Part shown: positions 1-15,953 of the stretch, one piece after another
Layout of the letters: each line of letters begins with the position of its first letter
How positions within the stretch are numbered: position 1 is the first letter of the stretch
The notes under the pieces: model-generated
What the model saw: the letters and a program-made list of their open reading frames with translations, nothing else
What the model was told of the DNA's origin: nothing
The model's database searches: none
Made by a program: the position numbers and the translations under genes
Virus genome (UHGV): UHGV-0246545
Origin: a virus
Direction: 5' to 3' (one strand)
Length of the DNA stretch: 22,114 bases

Positions 1-89
1 ATTTTGAACTTTTGCTTTGCCACGGAACGGTCTGCGTTGTCGGGAAGATGCGTGATCTGATCCTTCAACTCAGCAAAAGTTCGATTTAT

Positions 90-695
90 TCAACAAAGCC
101 TGACATTTGTTGAAAAACTCGGCTTACATCGGTCTAATTCATCAATTATAATTACGATTTTTTGATTTTTTGATATACTTTCGATGCAGGATTTAAGTGA
201 ATTTATGTTTTTCTCTGAGTCCATATGGTCTTCAAGCAAATTTTCAATAGTCCCATCTATTGCTGCATTGCTTGCTTTCTTCATCGCATCTTGGAATTCT
301 TCGGCAACTTCACTAGCCTCCTGTCGTAAAAACCAACCTGCACCAGCTTTTAGTACCGTTTTTAAACCAAAGCGAATTGCAGGAAGAGATCTCTTAATGA
401 AGTGTTGTTTTTCTTCCTCAGGCAAAATGCTGGCAATTGCAGAGGTTATGAGAAGTAATGGAGATTCTGCATGATCCCCTTTAAAGGCATCAATATAAAC
501 AACTTTAGATTCAGTTTCTTGCTCAATAATGAGATTTTTCAGTTTGATACTAAATTCTGTTTTCCCTGTTCCCCATGCGCCGTCTATTACCAGTGGTGAA
601 ATGTCTGCCTCTGGTTTTAGCAACTTGATGATATTTTCAGCGATGTTTCTTCGTTGGAACTCGTCACGTTCAGTGAAAGATAGTGTATCTAACAT
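90..695 (-). CDS. KAP-family P-loop NTPase, N-terminal ATPase region only; ORF ends 11 codons after Walker B (probably truncated or interrupted)
   Basis: Walker A GAWGTGKT (aa 39-46) and KAP-type Walker B IIIDELDRC (aa 182-190) in the translation. ATG at 693-695 (reverse complement), TGA at 90-92. Visibly AT-rich and antisense to the late operon. Confidence 0.7.
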   Translation of the reverse strand: MLDTLSFTERDEFQRRNIAENIIKLLKPEADISPLVIDGAWGTGKTEFSIKLKNLIIEQETESKVVYIDAFKGDHAESPLLLITSAIASILPEEEKQHFIKRSLPAIRFGLKTVLKAGAGWFLRQEASEVAEEFQDAMKKASNAAIDGTIENLLEDHMDSEKNINSLKSCIESISKNQKIVIIIDELDRCKPSFSTNVRLC

Positions 696-1321: not shown

Positions 1322-1798
1322 ATGCAGGCACTAAATTCCCAGCGTAAAGCTTTCCTTGATATGGTGGCATGGTCAGAAGGAACGGATAACGGGCGACAAC
1401 CGACACGTAACCACGGTTATGACGTTATTGTTGGTGGTGAACTGTTTACTGATTACTCCGATCATCCTCGCAAACTTGTCACGCTAAACTCCAAACTCAA
1501 ATCAACAGCCGCCGGACGTTACCAGCTTCTTTCACGTTGGTGGGATGCTTACCGTAAACAGCTTGGTTTGAAAGACTTCTCCCCCAAAAGCCAGGACGCT
1601 GTGGCATTGCAGCAGATTAAAGAACGTGGCGCTTTACCGATGATTGATCGTGGTGATATTCGTCAGGCTATCGACCGTTGCAGCAATATCTGGGCTTCGT
1701 TGCCGGGCGCTGGTTACGGTCAGTATGAACATAAAATTGGTGACCTGATTGCCAGGTTTAAAGAGGTTGGCGGGGTGGTAAATGAAGTTGAGCTATAA
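1322..1798 (+). CDS. R: Endolysin, lambda R-type lytic transglycosylase
   Basis: 158-aa translation (…QRKAFLDMVAWSEGTDNGRQ…RNHGYDVIVGGELFTDYSDHPRKLVTLN…) closely matches lambda R as I recall it; identity not computed. AAGGAG Shine-Dalgarno at 1310-1315. Confidence 0.93.
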   Translation: MQALNSQRKAFLDMVAWSEGTDNGRQPTRNHGYDVIVGGELFTDYSDHPRKLVTLNSKLKSTAAGRYQLLSRWWDAYRKQLGLKDFSPKSQDAVALQQIKERGALPMIDRGDIRQAIDRCSNIWASLPGAGYGQYEHKIGDLIARFKEVGGVVNEVEL

Positions 1799-2243
1799 GC
1801 TAGTTATCGCTGCTTTCTTCGTTACTATTATTGGTTCTTTCATCTGGTCAGCGAATCATTACCACAATCAAGCCATTGAATACAAAAAGCAGCGCGACGA
1901 AAACGCTATGGCATTACATTCGGCTATGGCGACGATCTCTGATATGCAGAAGCGTCAACGTGACGTAGCTGAACTTGACGCCAGATACACAAAGGAGCTT
2001 GCTGATGCTAACACGACTCTCGAAAGTCTCCGTACTGATGTCTCTGCTGGTCGTAAGCGCTTGCAAATCGCCGCCACCTGTGCAAAGTCAACGACCGGAG
2101 CCAGCGGCATGGGCTATGGAGAAAGTCCAAGACTTACAGCTGATGCTGAACTCAATTATTACCGCCTCCGAAGTGGGATCGACAAGATAACTGCACAGGT
2201 TAACTATTTGCAGGAGTACATCAAGACACAGTGCCAGAAATGA
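1782..2243 (+). CDS. Rz: Rz-like i-spanin (inner-membrane spanin)
   Basis: 153 aa with N-terminal TM segment (LVIAAFFVTIIGSFIW) and coiled-coil periplasmic part; …QRDVAELDARYTKELADA… resembles lambda Rz. Start overlaps the endolysin 3' end. Confidence 0.88.
   Translation: MKLSYKLVIAAFFVTIIGSFIWSANHYHNQAIEYKKQRDENAMALHSAMATISDMQKRQRDVAELDARYTKELADANTTLESLRTDVSAGRKRLQIAATCAKSTTGASGMGYGESPRLTADAELNYYRLRSGIDKITAQVNYLQEYIKTQCQK
2005..2190 (+). CDS. Rz1: Rz1-like o-spanin (outer-membrane lipoprotein), embedded in Rz in the +1 frame
   Basis: ATG at 2005 preceded by AGGAG (1993-1997). Signal peptide with lipobox-like LVVSAC followed by proline-rich KSPPPVQSQRPEP; wholly nested within Rz as in lambda. 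Confidence 0.82.
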   Translation: MLTRLSKVSVLMSLLVVSACKSPPPVQSQRPEPAAWAMEKVQDLQLMLNSIITASEVGSTR

Positions 2244-2251
2244 ATCTATAG

Positions 2252-2279
2252 ATGACACTCCACGTTCGTATAAGATAAT
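2252..2279 (+). promoter_or_regulatory. Candidate sigma70 promoter for the 287-aa moron gene (-35 ATGACA 2252-2257, 16-nt spacer, -10 GATAAT 2274-2279)
   Basis: Hexamers each 5/6 to consensus with 16-nt spacing, about 35 nt upstream of an AGGAG Shine-Dalgarno (2305-2309) and the ATG at 2316. Found by eye only. Confidence 0.35.
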
Positions 2280-2315
2280 GCTAAATTACTATTAGCTTAA
2301 TCACAGGAGACGGAC

Positions 2316-3179
2316 ATGGAAAGAGGTGTGGTATTTAGTGCATGCGAATTACTTAAAACCGAGGATGGAAAAGGCATCCGTACAGGTAAATGGATTAGTC
2401 AATTAGAAATAAACTATCTATGTCTTTATTGGGATAAACTAGTTTCACCCACTAATAATATTATACATACAGCATTAAATAACGAGGATGAATTAGAAAA
2501 ATGTGGATTGCTAACCAGACCTGTATATAGACATCATGGTTGTTTTGATGGCCAATATATGGCTGATTTTTATGCTGAAACTCATGCCAAAACAATAGAT
2601 ATACTTAGGCATGCGGATTCTTCTGTCGATTGGCGCATGCATTTTTTAAGTGACCAAATAAACTTGGTGCCTGAATTATCTAGAACCTCAGAAGTGATAC
2701 GTTTTGAGCTAGCAAATTTATTACCCGTTCCCACAGAAGATGTGCACCTACATGATATTCTTGATTTCAAGGAAAGAAGAAAACCTGAATTAATCGCTTT
2801 ACATGAATATCTTGATGAGCTTTACTTGGAAATAAAACGTTCTGGTGATATCAATCTTCAGAAAGCAAAAGCTCTTTCTAATCTTAAACAAGCAATAAAG
2901 GATATTGAACGCTTAAATTGTGAAGTGTGGAAAAGTCCAATAAAATTTAGCATCTCTACTTCCTTTGAGTTCGATTTTTCACAAATATTTAGTCTGGCGG
3001 GAACTGTTTTATCTATGTCAGTAGATTATCCTTATAATGTTATTGGAGGGGTAAGTAGTTTTGTTTATTTTTTGGGAGGATGCATAAAAATAAAGCCACA
3101 ATTTCAACAAGTGTTATCATTAGGTAATGATAAATTAGTTTACATAAGCAAAGGAAAATCGGAGGGTATTATTTCCTGA
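2316..3179 (+). CDS. Hypothetical protein, 287 aa, AT-rich moron; no recognisable family
   Basis: Long ORF with good AGGAG Shine-Dalgarno and an in-frame stop 18 nt upstream of the ATG. Visibly lower GC than flanking phage genes. Helical or coiled-coil-like central region and hydrophobic C-terminal stretch; no signal peptide. Confidence 0.7.
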   Translation: MERGVVFSACELLKTEDGKGIRTGKWISQLEINYLCLYWDKLVSPTNNIIHTALNNEDELEKCGLLTRPVYRHHGCFDGQYMADFYAETHAKTIDILRHADSSVDWRMHFLSDQINLVPELSRTSEVIRFELANLLPVPTEDVHLHDILDFKERRKPELIALHEYLDELYLEIKRSGDINLQKAKALSNLKQAIKDIERLNCEVWKSPIKFSISTSFEFDFSQIFSLAGTVLSMSVDYPYNVIGGVSSFVYFLGGCIKIKPQFQQVLSLGNDKLVYISKGKSEGIIS

Positions 3180-3255
3180 TTTTTGATTCTCATAATCAAT
3201 GAATGTTTTTTGTGAATATACTTATTTTAACCCTATAAATAATCAAGGTAATAAA

Positions 3256-3606
3256 GTGCCTCCTCGTATCCCGAAAGCCTGCCGTGCTCGAGGTTGCCGT
3301 AATACCACCACAGACCCGTCAGGCTACTGCGAAAGCCACAAAAGCGAAGGCTGGAAGCAATACAAGCCAGGCCAGTCCCGACACCAGCGCGGTTATGGTG
3401 CGAAATGGGATGTTATCCGTGAACGTGTGCTCAAGCGTGACAAAGGCCTGTGTCAGTTGTGTTTGCGTGCCGGTGTGGTGCGCGAGGCGAAAACCGTTGA
3501 CCACATCATCCCTAAAGCACATGGCGGCACTGATGCCGACAGTAATCTGCAGAGTCTGTGCTGGCCGTGTCATAAGGCGAAGACGGCCCGTGAACGGTTG
3601 AAGTAA
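3256..3606 (+). CDS. HNH endonuclease, terminase-associated (phage packaging HNH)
   Basis: HNH motif region …CQLCLRAGVVREAKTVDHIIPKAHGGTDADSNLQSLCWPCHKAKT… immediately upstream of the small terminase. Probable GTG start at 3256 (AAGG Shine-Dalgarno, GC-rich sequence begins here); the ORF track ATG at 3199 adds an AT-rich extension with no Shine-Dalgarno, which I consider less likely. Confidence 0.8.
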   Translation: MPPRIPKACRARGCRNTTTDPSGYCESHKSEGWKQYKPGQSRHQRGYGAKWDVIRERVLKRDKGLCQLCLRAGVVREAKTVDHIIPKAHGGTDADSNLQSLCWPCHKAKTARERLK

Positions 3607-3731: not shown

Positions 3732-4226
3732 ATGGCTGGAACGGCGGGGCGTTCCGGGCGTCGCCCCAAGCCAACGGCGCGCAAGGCGCTGGCCGGAAAC
3801 CCCGGCAAGCGAGCCCTGAACAAAGATGAACCTGTTTTTACGCCCATCAAAGGGGTTGAGCCACCGGAGTGGTTCGCAGAAGAAAATCTCCCTCTCGCTA
3901 CGATCATGTGGCAACTGACAACCAAAGAACTCTGCGGTCAGGGCCTGCTGTGCGTGACTGACCTCGCGGTGCTTGAGCGGTGGTGCGTAGCCTATGAGTT
4001 CTGGCGACGTGCCGTGAAAAATATTGCCAGCCAGGGCAACACCATCACCGGTGCAATGGGCGGTATGGTCAAAAATCCGGAGCTGACCGCCAAGAAAGAA
4101 CAGGAGTCCGAGATGAGCAGCACGGGGGCAATGCTCGGACTCGACCCCAGCAGCCGCCAGCGTCTGATTGGCCTGGCGGGGCAGAAGAAAGCCACTAACC
4201 CGTTTCTGAAAATTATCGAATCATGA
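3732..4226 (+). CDS. terS: Terminase small subunit (P27-like family)
   Basis: N-terminus [34 protein letters not shown] is typical of P27-family small terminases. AGGAG (3719-3723) 8 nt upstream of ATG 3732; the ORF track start at 3723 is GTG. ATGA overlap with terL. Confidence 0.85.
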
Positions 4227-5956
4227 GCCGGAAATCTTACCCCAACGTAAATGCAGCCAATCAGTATGCCCGTGATGTCGTGCGCGGAAAGATTGTGGCC
4301 TGCCAGTTTGTGATTCAGGCCTGCCAGCGCCATCTTGATGACCTGATGGCGGAAAAAAGTAAGTCGTTTCGTTACCGCTTCGACAAGGACCTGGCTGAAC
4401 GGGCCGCGAAATTTATTCAGCTGTTGCCGCACACCAAGGGTGAGTGGGCATTCAAACGGATGCCCATCACGCTGGAGCCGTGGCAGCTATTTGTGATCTG
4501 CTGTGCGTTTGGCTGGGTCAATAAAGGCACCCGGTTGCGCCGCTTCCGGGAGGTGTATACCGAAATCCCCCGTAAGAACGGCAAATCAGCAATCTCTGCC
4601 GGTGTTGCCCTGTATTGTTTTGCCTGTGATAACGAGTTTGGCGCGGAAGTGTATTCCGGTGCCACGACAGAGAAACAGGCGTGGGAAGTCTTTCGCCCGG
4701 CGCGACTGATGTGTAAACGCACACCCATGCTGACGGAAGCGTTCGGGATTGAGGTTAACGCCTCAAACATGAACCGTCCGGAGGATGGCGCGCGGTTTGA
4801 ACCGCTGATCGGTAACCCTGGTGATGGTTCATCACCCCACTGTGCGGTGGTGGATGAATATCACGAGCACGCCACCGATGCGCTTTATACCACGATGCTT
4901 ACCGGGATGGGGGCGCGACGTCAGCCACTGATGTGGGCCATCACCACCGCCGGGTACAACATTGAGGGGCCGTGCTACGACAAGCGGCGGGAAGTTATCG
5001 AGATGCTCAACGGTTCGGTACCCAACGATGAACTGTTCGGGATCATCTATACCGTTGATGAAGGTGACGACTGGACCGACCCGCAGGTGCTGGAAAAAGC
5101 CAATCCAAATATTGGCGTGTCGGTTTATCGCGAATTTTTGTTAAGTCAGCAGCAGCGTGCTAAAAATAACGCCCGTCTGGCAAACGTCTTTAAAACAAAA
5201 CACCTCAATATCTGGGTGTCGGCGCGTTCGGCGTATTTCAACCTGGTGAGCTGGCAGAGCTGCGAGGATAAATCACTGACCCTTGAGCAGTTCGAGGGGC
5301 AGCCGTGCATTCTGGCCTTTGACCTGGCGCGTAAGCTGGATATGAACAGCATGGCGCGACTTTATACCCGCGAGATTGACGGTAAAACGCATTACTACAG
5401 TGTGGCCCCGCGTTTCTGGGTACCGTATGACACGGTGTACAGCGTCGAGAAAAATGAAGATCGCCGGACAGCCGAACGCTTTCAGAAATGGGTGGAAATG
5501 GGCGTTCTGACTGTTACCGCTGGTGCGGAGGTGGATTATCGCTACATCCTCGAGGAGACCAAAGCGGCGAACAAAATCAGCCCGGTCAGTGAGTCACCCA
5601 TCGACCCCTTCGGGGCGACCGGGCTGTCGCATGACCTTGCTGATGAAGACCTGAACCCCATCACCATCATTCAGAACTACACCAACATGTCCGATCCGAT
5701 GAAAGAGCTGGAAGCGGCGATTGAATCGGGGCGCTTTCATCATGACGGCAATCCCATCATGACCTGGTGTATCGGCAACGTGGTCGGCAAAACCATTCCG
5801 GGTAACGATGATGTGGTGAAGCCTGTCAAGGAGCAGGCGGAAAACAAAATCGATGGTGCGGTTGCACTGATTATGGCGATCGGTCGGGCAATGCTCAAAG
5901 AACCCGACGATTTCCTCTCATCTCTTGATCCGGACGATGCTCTCTTAATTCTATGA
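4223..5956 (+). CDS. terL: Terminase large subunit (HK97-type)
   Basis: 577 aa. Walker A-like PRKNGKS and Walker B-like AVVDEYHEH ATPase motifs, with a C-terminal nuclease-type region. Position between terS and portal. Confidence 0.93.
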
Positions 5957-13445: not shown

Positions 13446-15270
13446 ATTTGAGCTTAAGGCGTTGATCACCGGTGTCGACAGGCTTTCTCCCGCGCTGTCG
13501 AAAATGCAAAAGAAAATCCGGGGATTTAAACGCCAGGCGGAAGAAGCGTCACAGGGTGGGCTGGCGCTTGGTGGAGGACTGGCAGCGGGGCTGACGCTTT
13601 CCCTGAAATCTTATGCCGATCAGGAAAACGCCGCCACCGGGCTGAAAGTCGCCATGATGGATGCGAACGGCGAGGTTGGAAAGAGCTTTCAGGACATCAA
13701 TAAACTGGCTATTGGCCTGGGTAACCAGCTACCCGGTACAACGGCTGATTTCCAGAACATGATGCAGATGCTGGTGCGTCAGGGGATCCCGGCAGAAAAC
13801 ATTCTGGGTGGTGTGGGTAAAGCGACAGCTTATCTTGCGGTACAACTGAAAAAAACACCGGAAGCGGCTGCTGAGTTTGCTGCAAAGATGCAGGATGCTA
13901 CCGGAACGGCGTCAGAAGACATGATGGGGCTGTTCGACACTATCCAGAAGGCGTTTTATCTGGGCGTTGACGATACCAACATGTTGTCCTTCTTCACTAA
14001 AACCAGTTCTGTTCTGAAGATGGTGAACAAGGACGGTCTTCAGGCTGCACAGAGCCTTGCCCCCATCAGCGTCATGATGGATCAGATGGGGATGAACGGG
14101 GAGTCGGCAGGTAATGCCCTGCGAAAAGTTATCCAGTCCGGATTAAGCGTTAAGAAAATCAGGGACGTCAATAAAGTTATGGCCCGTCAGAAACTCGGGG
14201 TACAGCTCGATTTTACTGACGGCAAAGGAAGTTTTGGCGGTCTTGATAACATGTTTAAGCAACTGGCAAAGCTGCGAAAACTTACCGACGTTAAGCGAAC
14301 AGGTGTACTTAAGGCAATATTTGGTGATGATGCCGAAACCCTTCAGGTGGTCAATGCGCTGATCGATAAAGGAAAGGATGGTTACGATCAGATCCAGCAA
14401 AAGATGAATAAACAGGCCAGCCTGAATAAACGTGTTCAGGCACAGCTTGGTACGCTGTCCAACCTGTGGGAGGCAATGACGGGGACCGCAACTAACGGCC
14501 TTGCGGCTATTGGCGGCGCATTTTCTGGTGACGCCAAAAATATCACGCAATGGCTGGGGGAGTTGGGGGAAAAATTCACGAAGTTTGCGGATGAAAATCC
14601 CCGGGTTATTCGCGGCGTCGTCGGGCTTGCTGCCGGTCTTGCGATTCTGAAACTGGGATTGATGGGCGTGGGCAGTGCCATCAGCATTGTCAGCAGGATC
14701 ATGTCGATGACGCCGATTGGCATGATTGCGACGGCGATAGCCCTGGCTGCGGGATTAATTATCACTAACTGGGATGTTGTCGGACCTTATTTCAAGAAGC
14801 TCTGGGAAACCATTGGTCCTTATTTTGAGGCTGGCTGGGAACTCCTTAAGAAAGTTTTTGCCTGGTCGCCGATGGGGATGGTGATCAATAACTGGGGGCC
14901 GGTTGTTAAGTGGTTTCAGGATATGTGGGACAAGCTGAAGCCAATTATTGAGTGGTTTACCGACAGTTCCGGTGACACGGTCGATGCCATTAACTCTGCG
15001 CAGTGGGGCGCGGGTGCTTATGATGCTTATGGGACGGGAATACCGGCACGGGGATACACTCCTTATCCGGCGGTGGATCCGGCTCAGGCAAACAACGCCT
15101 CCGATGCCACAGGCTCGAATCCCTTCATGATTAATAAAGCTACCGCGCCAAAAGTTGATGGTGAGATCAAGGTATCATTTATAAATATGCCACCAGGTAT
15201 GCGGGTTACGGAAACACGCTCCAGTGGCATTGATATAAATCACGATGTTGGCTATACCCGATTTTGGTAG
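13438..15270 (+). CDS. Tail tape measure protein
   Basis: 610 aa, alanine- and glycine-rich with predicted long helical regions and a C-terminal hydrophobic stretch. Located after the frameshifted chaperone. AGGAG Shine-Dalgarno at 13423-13427. Confidence 0.9.
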   Translation: MAEFELKALITGVDRLSPALSKMQKKIRGFKRQAEEASQGGLALGGGLAAGLTLSLKSYADQENAATGLKVAMMDANGEVGKSFQDINKLAIGLGNQLPGTTADFQNMMQMLVRQGIPAENILGGVGKATAYLAVQLKKTPEAAAEFAAKMQDATGTASEDMMGLFDTIQKAFYLGVDDTNMLSFFTKTSSVLKMVNKDGLQAAQSLAPISVMMDQMGMNGESAGNALRKVIQSGLSVKKIRDVNKVMARQKLGVQLDFTDGKGSFGGLDNMFKQLAKLRKLTDVKRTGVLKAIFGDDAETLQVVNALIDKGKDGYDQIQQKMNKQASLNKRVQAQLGTLSNLWEAMTGTATNGLAAIGGAFSGDAKNITQWLGELGEKFTKFADENPRVIRGVVGLAAGLAILKLGLMGVGSAISIVSRIMSMTPIGMIATAIALAAGLIITNWDVVGPYFKKLWETIGPYFEAGWELLKKVFAWSPMGMVINNWGPVVKWFQDMWDKLKPIIEWFTDSSGDTVDAINSAQWGAGAYDAYGTGIPARGYTPYPAVDPAQANNASDATGSNPFMINKATAPKVDGEIKVSFINMPPGMRVTETRSSGIDINHDVGYTRFW

Positions 15271-15298
15271 CCAGGATTCCCCTCACATGTATTGCTGG

Positions 15299-15326
15299 TT
15301 GTAAGTCATAAATAGAGTGATAGAAT
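15299..15326 (+). promoter_or_regulatory. Candidate sigma70 promoter with extended -10 (TTGTAA 15299-15304, 16-nt spacer, TGaTAGAAT 15318-15326) for the tail-module moron
   Basis: Found by eye in the AT-rich gap between the tape measure stop and the moron ATG. -35 is 4/6 and -10 is 5/6 to consensus, with a TG extension. Confidence 0.35.
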
Positions 15327-15361
15327 TAATGCACATTTAGAAAAATGTTAATAGGCGAAAA

Positions 15362-15892
15362 ATGAAAGGCTATATCACAGCAAGTGTAATTCTTGGAGCA
15401 GCGGCTATTTTTTCATCTCTCATAATCTCTGGCAACATCTCCTTTAAAGATGAACATATTATTCAGTTATCTGGAGGAGCCATAAAACTTGGTGATGTTT
15501 ATAAAGAAAATAAATTGATAAGTGCAAAGATTATTTTTCCAGATAATCAGGGTGAACAGATTCTTGTTGTCGACGGCAATCCTGAAAACTTTAAGGAGGA
15601 TTTTCAGGAGAAATTAAATAAAGTAATAAAAACTTTAAATGCGTCAAAGAAAAAAGATGAAGAGAAAGTTAGCCTGGATAATTTAAGTGTTATTGAAGAG
15701 TCTAAACTAGAGCTCGTTTCTGCGGTGCGTTACTCTGCTCAGTATGTTCCTATGTTTACTCTGACGCTGGACAAAAAAGAAATTACCATGCCTAAAAATA
15801 CGGTAATATTTCCATTTGCCAGCGATGAAACAGCTAAGTATTTAAATGAACAACAGCAAAAGTATAAAGATTCGTTGTTTCTGACTCGCTAA
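15362..15892 (+). CDS. Hypothetical secreted or membrane-anchored protein, 176 aa, AT-rich moron
   Basis: N-terminal hydrophobic segment ITASVILGAAAIFSSLIISG (signal peptide or signal anchor, no lipobox Cys), lysine-rich body. Visibly AT-rich, flanked by its own promoter-like sequence and a strong terminator. Confidence 0.7.
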   Translation: MKGYITASVILGAAAIFSSLIISGNISFKDEHIIQLSGGAIKLGDVYKENKLISAKIIFPDNQGEQILVVDGNPENFKEDFQEKLNKVIKTLNASKKKDEEKVSLDNLSVIEESKLELVSAVRYSAQYVPMFTLTLDKKEITMPKNTVIFPFASDETAKYLNEQQQKYKDSLFLTR

Positions 15893-15910
15893 TTAATAAA
15901 ATTCATTACA

Positions 15911-15940
15911 AGGCCACCTTCTAATAGGTGGCTTTTTTAT
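15911..15940 (+). terminator. Rho-independent terminator after the tail-module moron
   Basis: Perfect 7-bp stem GCCACCT (15913-15919) / AGGTGGC (15926-15932), 6-nt loop, followed by TTTTTT (15933-15938). Confidence 0.75.
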
Positions 15941-15953
15941 TTTCGGAGTGTAT

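Follow-up and report, generated by a model that had tools for sequence, protein, structure and literature searches.

What a single foreign gene is doing between the lysis and packaging genes of a prophage is the question raised by a 1-kb AT-rich cassette in the virus genome UHGV-0246545, of which one stretch of 22,114 nucleotides (the window) was analyzed here. The cassette was found to be a genuine prophage moron, gained horizontally at the lysis-to-packaging junction of an SfV/e14-like Escherichia coli prophage, and its one long gene encodes a protein of the DUF6236 family (the query protein in what follows). An anti-phage function for this protein is plausible on circumstantial grounds. Morons are already well known as a kind of feature, and this is a solid but ordinary case of one carrying a catalogued domain of unknown function. 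What is new here is the conserved extended -10 block upstream of the gene, the recurrent lysis–packaging slot on about eight phage backbones, the swapping of alleles in that slot and the domain outline of the protein; with these it is a well-prepared candidate for experiments, not a surprise.

A moron between Rz and HNH

The cassette, its gene and the two genes that flank it are as follows.

2246..3255: the moron itself, an AT-rich insertion that separates the Rz stop codon from the HNH start codon, delimited by GC content and homology breaks
2316..3179, + strand: coding sequence (stop included) of the 287-amino acid DUF6236 family protein, from the open reading frame list, Pfam and PHROG
1782..2243, + strand: i-spanin Rz, the left flank and end of the lysis cassette, annotated as "lysis protein" in E. 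coli XH990 and supported by phage Rz homology
3256..3606, + strand: HNH endonuclease with a GTG start, the right flank and first gene of the packaging module, from Pfam HNH (E = 2.3e-16) and the RefSeq annotation in XH990

The initial annotation of this DNA, made by eye from the letters, had proposed an AT-rich block, and the computed base composition bore this out. The GC content of 2246-3255 is 32.9%, against a mean over the window of 51.9% (standard deviation 0.071 as a fraction). When followed in steps of 300 nt, GC was 0.31-0.36 at 2251-3300, compared with 0.45-0.50 in the upstream lysis genes and 0.56-0.59 in the downstream HNH/terminase genes, and the flanks at 0.44-0.56 stand clear of the cassette at 0.329, the compositional break expected of a moron. 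Just 6% of the 300-nt stretches in the window reach this level of AT-richness, and they are grouped in three islands. The edges were obtained by megablast against 50,697 phage records: homology to related phages ended at 2245, the end of Rz, and was picked up again at 3257, the start of HNH. These breaks lie no more than 2 nt from the limits proposed by eye, which therefore delimit a true insertion, and the open reading frame within them is present exactly as first given.

At this exact junction, related phages hold nothing or a different gene. The slot between Rz and HNH contains no gene in Shigella phage SfIV, a 124-amino acid DUF6979 protein in phage SfI (L002, 854-1228), a 62-amino acid hypothetical open reading frame in E. 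coli ETEC1703 (L052, 695-883) and a 229-amino acid hypothetical open reading frame in E. coli PigCaeca_1 (L053, 688-1377). This pattern of presence and absence upheld the earlier idea of a one-gene cassette, acquired by horizontal transfer, at a site whose content varies. Judged from its occupants, the Rz/HNH slot looks like an unexplored cargo hotspot, the other genes found in it being likewise uncharacterized. The same arrangement as in the window was found in E. coli XH990, where the cassette is 99.9% identical and is annotated within an SfV/e14-like prophage. A 1011-bp block at ≥99% identity is present in 32 of 5,426 complete E. coli genomes, and one of the flanking sequences is held by about 2,500 of them. 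A 12-nt string, CAGAAATGAATC (2235-2246 of the window), spans the Rz stop and recurs about 70 nt upstream of a Klebsiella DUF6236 allele (L042, about 5930-5945); lying amid otherwise different upstream DNA, this shared string may mark the left-hand end of the cassette as a site of recombination.

In lambdoid prophages, the interval between the lysis and packaging genes is a classic moron site, occupied by bor in lambda, and the moron concept itself is said to go back to Juhala/Hendrix and to Cumby et al. The cassette resembles classical lambdoid morons such as lambda bor in its foreign composition, its presence or absence between related phages and its site after the lysis genes, and it also bears a promoter-like element of its own. 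Unlike them, it lacks a terminator, and its orientation is that of the late operon, whereas lambda bor lies on the opposite strand. Nor is the query protein related to Bor; it carries no signal peptide and is no lipoprotein.

Three elements upstream of the gene may be relevant to its expression.

2252..2279, + strand: sigma-70-like site ATGACA-16 nt-GATAAT put forward in the initial annotation, 10 of 12 matches in a consensus scan
2277..2287, + strand: conserved block AATGCTAAATT, with an extended -10 reading (TG at 2279-2280, TAAATT at 2282-2287), recognized by upstream conservation
2305..2309, + strand: Shine-Dalgarno AGGAG, 6 nt before the ATG, read from the sequence

The proposal that the gene has its own promoter is made likely by conservation, not by the consensus match. 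Two sigma-70-like sites were observed in the region against 4.4 expected from shuffled sequences, which is not above chance, so the match of ATGACA-16-GATAAT to the consensus means little by itself. The proposed -10 is nonetheless overlapped by a conserved 11-nt block. When 110 nt of upstream DNA were aligned for seven lineages of the cassette (protein identity to the query 33-73%), AATGcTAAaTT was the sole block kept in at least six of the seven. Its TG lies 32-40 nt before the ATG, and the rest of the upstream DNA has diverged past alignment; the block is therefore under selection and travels with the gene. An extended -10 element (TG-n-TAAATT, 2279-2287) describes it better than GATAAT does, and on this reading the gene probably has its own extended -10 promoter, active in the lysogen. 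No upstream motif common to family members outside the Enterobacteriaceae was found. The Shine-Dalgarno sequence was confirmed at its proposed place. Downstream of 3179 there is no intrinsic terminator, the fold of 3165-3265 being no better than that of shuffled sequences (z = -0.47). The cassette is therefore not the complete classical moron unit that had been suggested, and with the gene on the late strand, read-through of the late operon is also expected during lytic growth.

The DUF6236 protein and its family

The query protein had been taken as a member of an unknown family. It is in fact already covered by Pfam DUF6236 (PF19749) and PHROG 23128 and is so named in RefSeq, although these labels carry no function. 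The match to PF19749 scored 109.6 bits (E = 2.4e-31) against a gathering cut-off of 26.2 bits and spans amino acids 24-225, equivalent to profile positions 74-270 of 324, so that the Pfam model leaves out the extreme N terminus and the hydrophobic C-terminal third of the protein. The PHROG 23128 match (E = 2.8e-143) runs over its full length, and the RefSeq label on the gene in the 32 E. coli carriers is "DUF6236 family protein". By these profile matches the query is a DUF6236 member, with no difference in kind from the rest of the family, and PF19749 was also found in 88 of 88 homologues.

The family is large and uniform in build. A profile search of 1.84 billion representatives gave 1,729 clusters at 50% identity (E ≤ 0.001), spread over Gamma-, Alpha-, Beta-, Delta- and Epsilonproteobacteria, Bacteroidota, Firmicutes, Nitrospirota and Cyanobacteria. 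Among the best 150 representatives, length is nearly always 270-310 amino acids with an end-to-end match, and no fused domains were seen; the query, at 287 amino acids, falls within the single-domain architecture and length typical of the family (~280-350 amino acids). In an alignment of 40 members (25-73% identity), 16 residues are invariant and are given with their domains below. Between allele pairs, the ratio of nonsynonymous to synonymous substitution (dN/dS) is 0.08-0.28; this is therefore a functional gene under purifying selection.

From the same 40-sequence alignment an AlphaFold model was built, with a mean local confidence (pLDDT) of 74 and a predicted TM-score (pTM) of 0.75. Together with the alignment it gives the following outline.

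2316..2744, + strand: N-terminal alpha/beta domain (amino acids 1-143), predicted as generic Rossmann-like; invariant L37, W39, D40, P45, G64, W106, L136, P137 and P139
2748..2924, + strand: helical region (amino acids 145-203), in which a long helical hairpin comes after the conserved ILEFKERR helix; invariant F151, K152, R155, D167, Y170 and D178
2970..3083, + strand: Gly/Ala/Ser-rich hydrophobic segment (amino acids 219-256), a possible membrane-interacting hairpin, from its hydrophobicity and from pLDDT <50 at 223-251
3084..3176, + strand: C-terminal beta-hairpin (amino acids 257-287) with invariant Y276, from AlphaFold strands at 257-267 and 275-278 and the alignment

Several features that the initial annotation had picked out by eye reappear in this outline. 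The helical central region corresponds to two long helices in the model (156-176 and 183-203), no signal peptide is present at the N terminus, and the hydrophobic C-terminal stretch is real, its character being conserved across the family. In 95% of 217 family representatives, the most hydrophobic 19-mer lies at 0.75-0.95 of the protein length (median 0.87). The Kyte–Doolittle value of this best 19-mer has a family median of 1.52 and is ≥1.6 in 34% of representatives; that of the query is 1.37. Small-xxx-small motifs are abundant in the segment, which has few charges in 39 of the 40 aligned members.

Profile and structure searches, suggested earlier as a route to a characterized family, gave no specific solved relative. 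Foldseek against the PDB returned no match at E ≤ 0.001, the best being the CARF domain of Cad1 (E = 0.02), and a search by sequence profile for relatives of solved structure gave chance-level matches only (Rop and 14-3-3, E ≥ 0.2). As modeled, the N-terminal domain appears to be a generic Rossmann-like sandwich with no specific solved counterpart. The repeated CARF matches are best treated as a lead and not as membership. Against CARF effectors with membrane modules, such as Cam1 (PDB 8t64), or the CARF domains of Cad1/Can1/Csm6, the scores of the query fall within the range of any Rossmann-like fold and are therefore no evidence of membership; glycosyltransferases and pyridoxal phosphate (PLP) enzymes score equal to or above CARF proteins against the query model. 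CARF sequence motifs were not seen by eye in the family alignment, and no CRISPR or cyclase genes occur among the surveyed DUF6236 neighbors. The order of domains in Cam1 is also the opposite of that in the query protein. With a similarity no better than that to other Rossmann-like folds, and no type III CRISPR or cyclic-nucleotide synthase among the Pfam matches of the neighbors, CARF membership is not supported.

A HEPN assignment was rejected. The RPVYRH string, which had been likened to an Rx4H motif, lies within the alpha/beta domain. R68 is mostly conserved; in most homologues the place of H73 is taken by Q, R, L, N, S or a gap, so that the Rx4H pattern is not conserved. The alpha/beta fold, in place of an all-alpha one, also means that the protein is not HEPN, and no HEPN proteins appeared among the structural matches.

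The position of the gene recurs across phages. On about eight backbones in the Enterobacteriaceae, a homologue (33-73% identical to the query) occupies the late strand immediately downstream of the lysis cassette, with HNH/terminase following; the backbones include those of Citrobacter, Klebsiella, Enterobacter (two), Salmonella, Providencia and a second E. coli phage. The packaging modules beside the slot are of several types (GpA/DUF1441, GpA/Nu1, P27-Terminase_4, Terminase_2 and Terminase_3/6), and the enterobacterial lambdoid-prophage homologues that were checked lie 10-18 GC points below their flanks. In 77 IMG/VR viral loci, the upstream genes are mostly endolysins, spanins and holins, and the downstream genes mostly packaging genes. 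Other positions are also used: Klebsiella phage Mulock has the gene between integrase and tail fiber, Vibrio prophages have it at their extreme end, and in Acinetobacter it is carried on 12-16-kb plasmids. On the 16-kb Acinetobacter lwoffii plasmid pALWED1.3 (L054), the DUF6236 gene (4992-5882) starts 21 bp after a 345-amino acid Abi_2/RiboL-PSP-HEPN gene (3934-4971), the product of which matches PD-T4-5 and AbiD in PADLOC; the pair could be a two-gene unit or merely adjacent defense cargo. An all-versus-all blastp of neighbors in 35 genomes revealed no conserved partner gene, and the Pfam families of neighbors are heterogeneous and often housekeeping.

Alleles at this position are exchanged while the surrounding phage is kept. 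In a group of Enterobacter-type phages, a 485-amino acid gene product is 88-94% identical, and the identity between the DUF6236 alleles beside it is 29-60%. In nucleotide alignments, the flanks match at 84-90% until about 100 bp from the gene, and the DUF6236 region cannot be aligned. The 485-amino acid protein, which is uncharacterized and has a weak glycosyltransferase-2 match, is encoded about 100-200 bp downstream of DUF6236 in loci L070, L072, L074, L077, L081, L083, L108 and L114, and is also found in L045-L047. Two types of it occur, with about 74% identity between them. Members of the larger type (L070, L077, L081, L108, L114, L045 and L047) are 87-95% identical, and the DUF6236 alleles next to them show identities of 28% to 100%. 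Replacement by distant homologues in conserved backbones, combined with purifying selection, is typical of conflict genes (immunity, exclusion or defense specificity) and suggests such a role, although it is not proof of one. The 485-amino acid gene was considered as an obligate partner and rejected: it belongs to the conserved backbone or co-cargo, next to DUF6236 alleles that vary, and it is absent from the window, so it is not obligate.

Candidate functions

The function that we tentatively favor is that of a lysogen-expressed, single-protein phage-exclusion or abortive-infection factor, in which a Rossmann-like sensor would be combined with a membrane-engaging hydrophobic hairpin. The gene would be transcribed in the lysogen from its own extended -10 promoter, and on induction also by read-through of the late operon. 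Together, the Rossmann-like N-terminal domain and the ILEFKERR/helical region would enclose a pocket with invariant polar and aromatic residues in its walls, where a small ligand, or else a product of the phage, may be sensed. The change would then be passed on by the helical hairpin, and the Gly/Ala-rich hydrophobic C-terminal segment would engage the inner membrane, with the result that the infected cell is stopped or entry is blocked. This membrane step is less certain than the defense function as a whole. Support for a defense role comes also from the second AT-rich moron of the same prophage, which matches the PADLOC family PDC-S20.

Stand-alone prophage defense genes have precedents in HepS of Gifsy-1, a prophage abortive-infection protein with a HEPN domain (PMC13043305), and in BstA, a single-gene prophage defense protein (PMC8585504). 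The query resembles these and the Abi_2/AbiD-type proteins in that its gene stands alone as prophage accessory cargo at a site of variable content. It differs from them in having neither a HEPN motif nor a KilA-N domain, no relation to them in sequence or fold, and no match in PADLOC; HepS, an unrelated HEPN protein, was accordingly dismissed as a relative.

A number of observations weigh against defense. A search of PADLOC-DB 2.0.0 (5,027 models), the check that had been proposed for a defense-family match, returned no family at E ≤ 10 for the query protein. NCBIfam likewise gave no match, and no mention of DUF6236, PF19749, phrog_23128, WP_021556491 or characteristic peptides was found in the literature searched. 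The other cargo of the slot, the DUF6979 protein and the 229-amino acid hypothetical protein, is without a PADLOC match as well. In Pseudoalteromonas, Psychrobacter and others, a lone DUF6236 gene lies amid housekeeping genes and not in defense islands, and about 4 of 118 immediate neighbors (within two genes) matched PADLOC defense models (type IIG restriction–modification, HerA, SduA and a methyltransferase), a proportion for which no background rate was computed. The membrane step is weakened by the hydrophobic segment itself, which, with its median of 1.52, appears borderline as a transmembrane helix, and by lineage P0083, in which a charged amphipathic segment stands in its place. Lastly, the consistent placing of the gene, in late orientation and next after the lysis genes, is just as compatible with a role in the lytic growth of the phage itself.

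Such a role would make the query a late-phase accessory protein, expressed mainly by Q-antiterminated late transcription, that might time lysis via the membrane, shield progeny from adsorption to debris and lysing cells, or counter host defense. The location directly after the spanin/endolysin genes, on the late strand, in about eight enterobacterial backbones and most of the 77 viral contigs speaks for it, as does the absence of a terminator between the DUF6236 gene and HNH/terminase, and the hydrophobic segment could interact with holin or membrane. Set against this, the gene is present in only 32 of the 5,426 E. coli genomes against about 2,500 with one flanking sequence, a rarity which implies that it is dispensable for these phages, and the slot of SfIV is empty. 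Elsewhere the gene is found by an integrase, at the end of an element, on small plasmids and in chromosomes without phage genes, and it is accompanied by a conserved promoter-like block and has a base composition foreign to the late operon; a late-phase role is therefore considered unlikely. The enzyme-like fold matches and the housekeeping neighborhoods of DUF6236 genes favor a lysogenic-conversion or fitness moron apart from defense. In that case the ligand of the Rossmann-like domain would be a nucleotide, sugar-nucleotide or cofactor, and the protein would modify or sense a host component (envelope, metabolite or stress signal) to the benefit of the lysogen. This reading is considered less likely than defense.

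It could also be asked whether the gene benefits its carriers at all. A selfish toxic or addiction-type element, or a neutral hitch-hiker, might be kept by recombination at a phage hotspot and not by any benefit, and the solitary, mobile and patchy occurrence of the gene over phyla, phages and small plasmids, with no partner gene found, is what such an element would show. The strong purifying selection (dN/dS 0.08-0.28), the 16 residues invariant in members only 25-73% identical, the roughly 1,700 diverged clusters of the same length and architecture, and the lack of an antitoxin-like small open reading frame in the cassette (from the open reading frame list) all speak against this, and it is regarded as improbable.

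A broader proposal, offered as a speculation that we would not expect to hold in full, is that DUF6236 constitutes a large unrecognized single-protein anti-phage family, in which a Rossmann-like sensor is joined to a latent membrane-inserting Gly/Ala-rich hairpin, and that a promoter-plus-gene cassette is exchanged by lambdoid phages at the lysis–packaging junction, with the alleles setting target specificity. Were defense or exclusion to prove correct, the defense catalogue would gain a widespread single-gene family, of about 1,700 clusters at 50% identity in many phyla, phages and plasmids; the lysis-to-packaging junction of enterobacterial lambdoid phages would be a cassette-exchange hotspot worth mining; and a compact sensor–effector protein would become available for mechanistic study. 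If the function is not defense, DUF6236 would still be a well-delimited target, for which a promoter candidate, 16 invariant residues and natural alleles in near-isogenic phages permit straightforward functional experiments.

Neighboring genes and other AT-rich islands

The gene order in the window is that of a lambdoid late region, with HK97-type head genes and a Mu-like contractile tail farther along. Besides Rz and HNH, the genes nearest to the cassette are the following.

992-1318: lambda-family holin
1322-1798: endolysin
1975-2190: o-spanin Rz1 open reading frame, embedded in Rz
after the HNH endonuclease: P27-type small terminase
4223-5956: large terminase, followed by the portal gene

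The two remaining AT-rich islands lie at either side of these genes. One, at about 15250-15950 (GC 0.34), contains a 176-amino acid open reading frame (15362-15892, + strand) between the tape-measure gene and the DNA-circularization/baseplate genes. No match to this open reading frame was found in Pfam or PADLOC, and the island may be another moron, inside the tail module. The other, at 1-750, contains on the - strand (window 1-695) the N-terminal part of a KAP-family P-loop NTPase, as open reading frame 90..695, cut by the start of the window. Its place is between the antiterminator Q gene and the holin gene, in the reverse orientation, and in XH990 the full gene encodes 443 amino acids. Its product matches the PADLOC candidate defense family PDC-S20 (E = 1e-98) and, more weakly, PifA. 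By composition and profile match, this NTPase gene is the second AT-rich moron of the same prophage, and one with a match in the defense catalogue.

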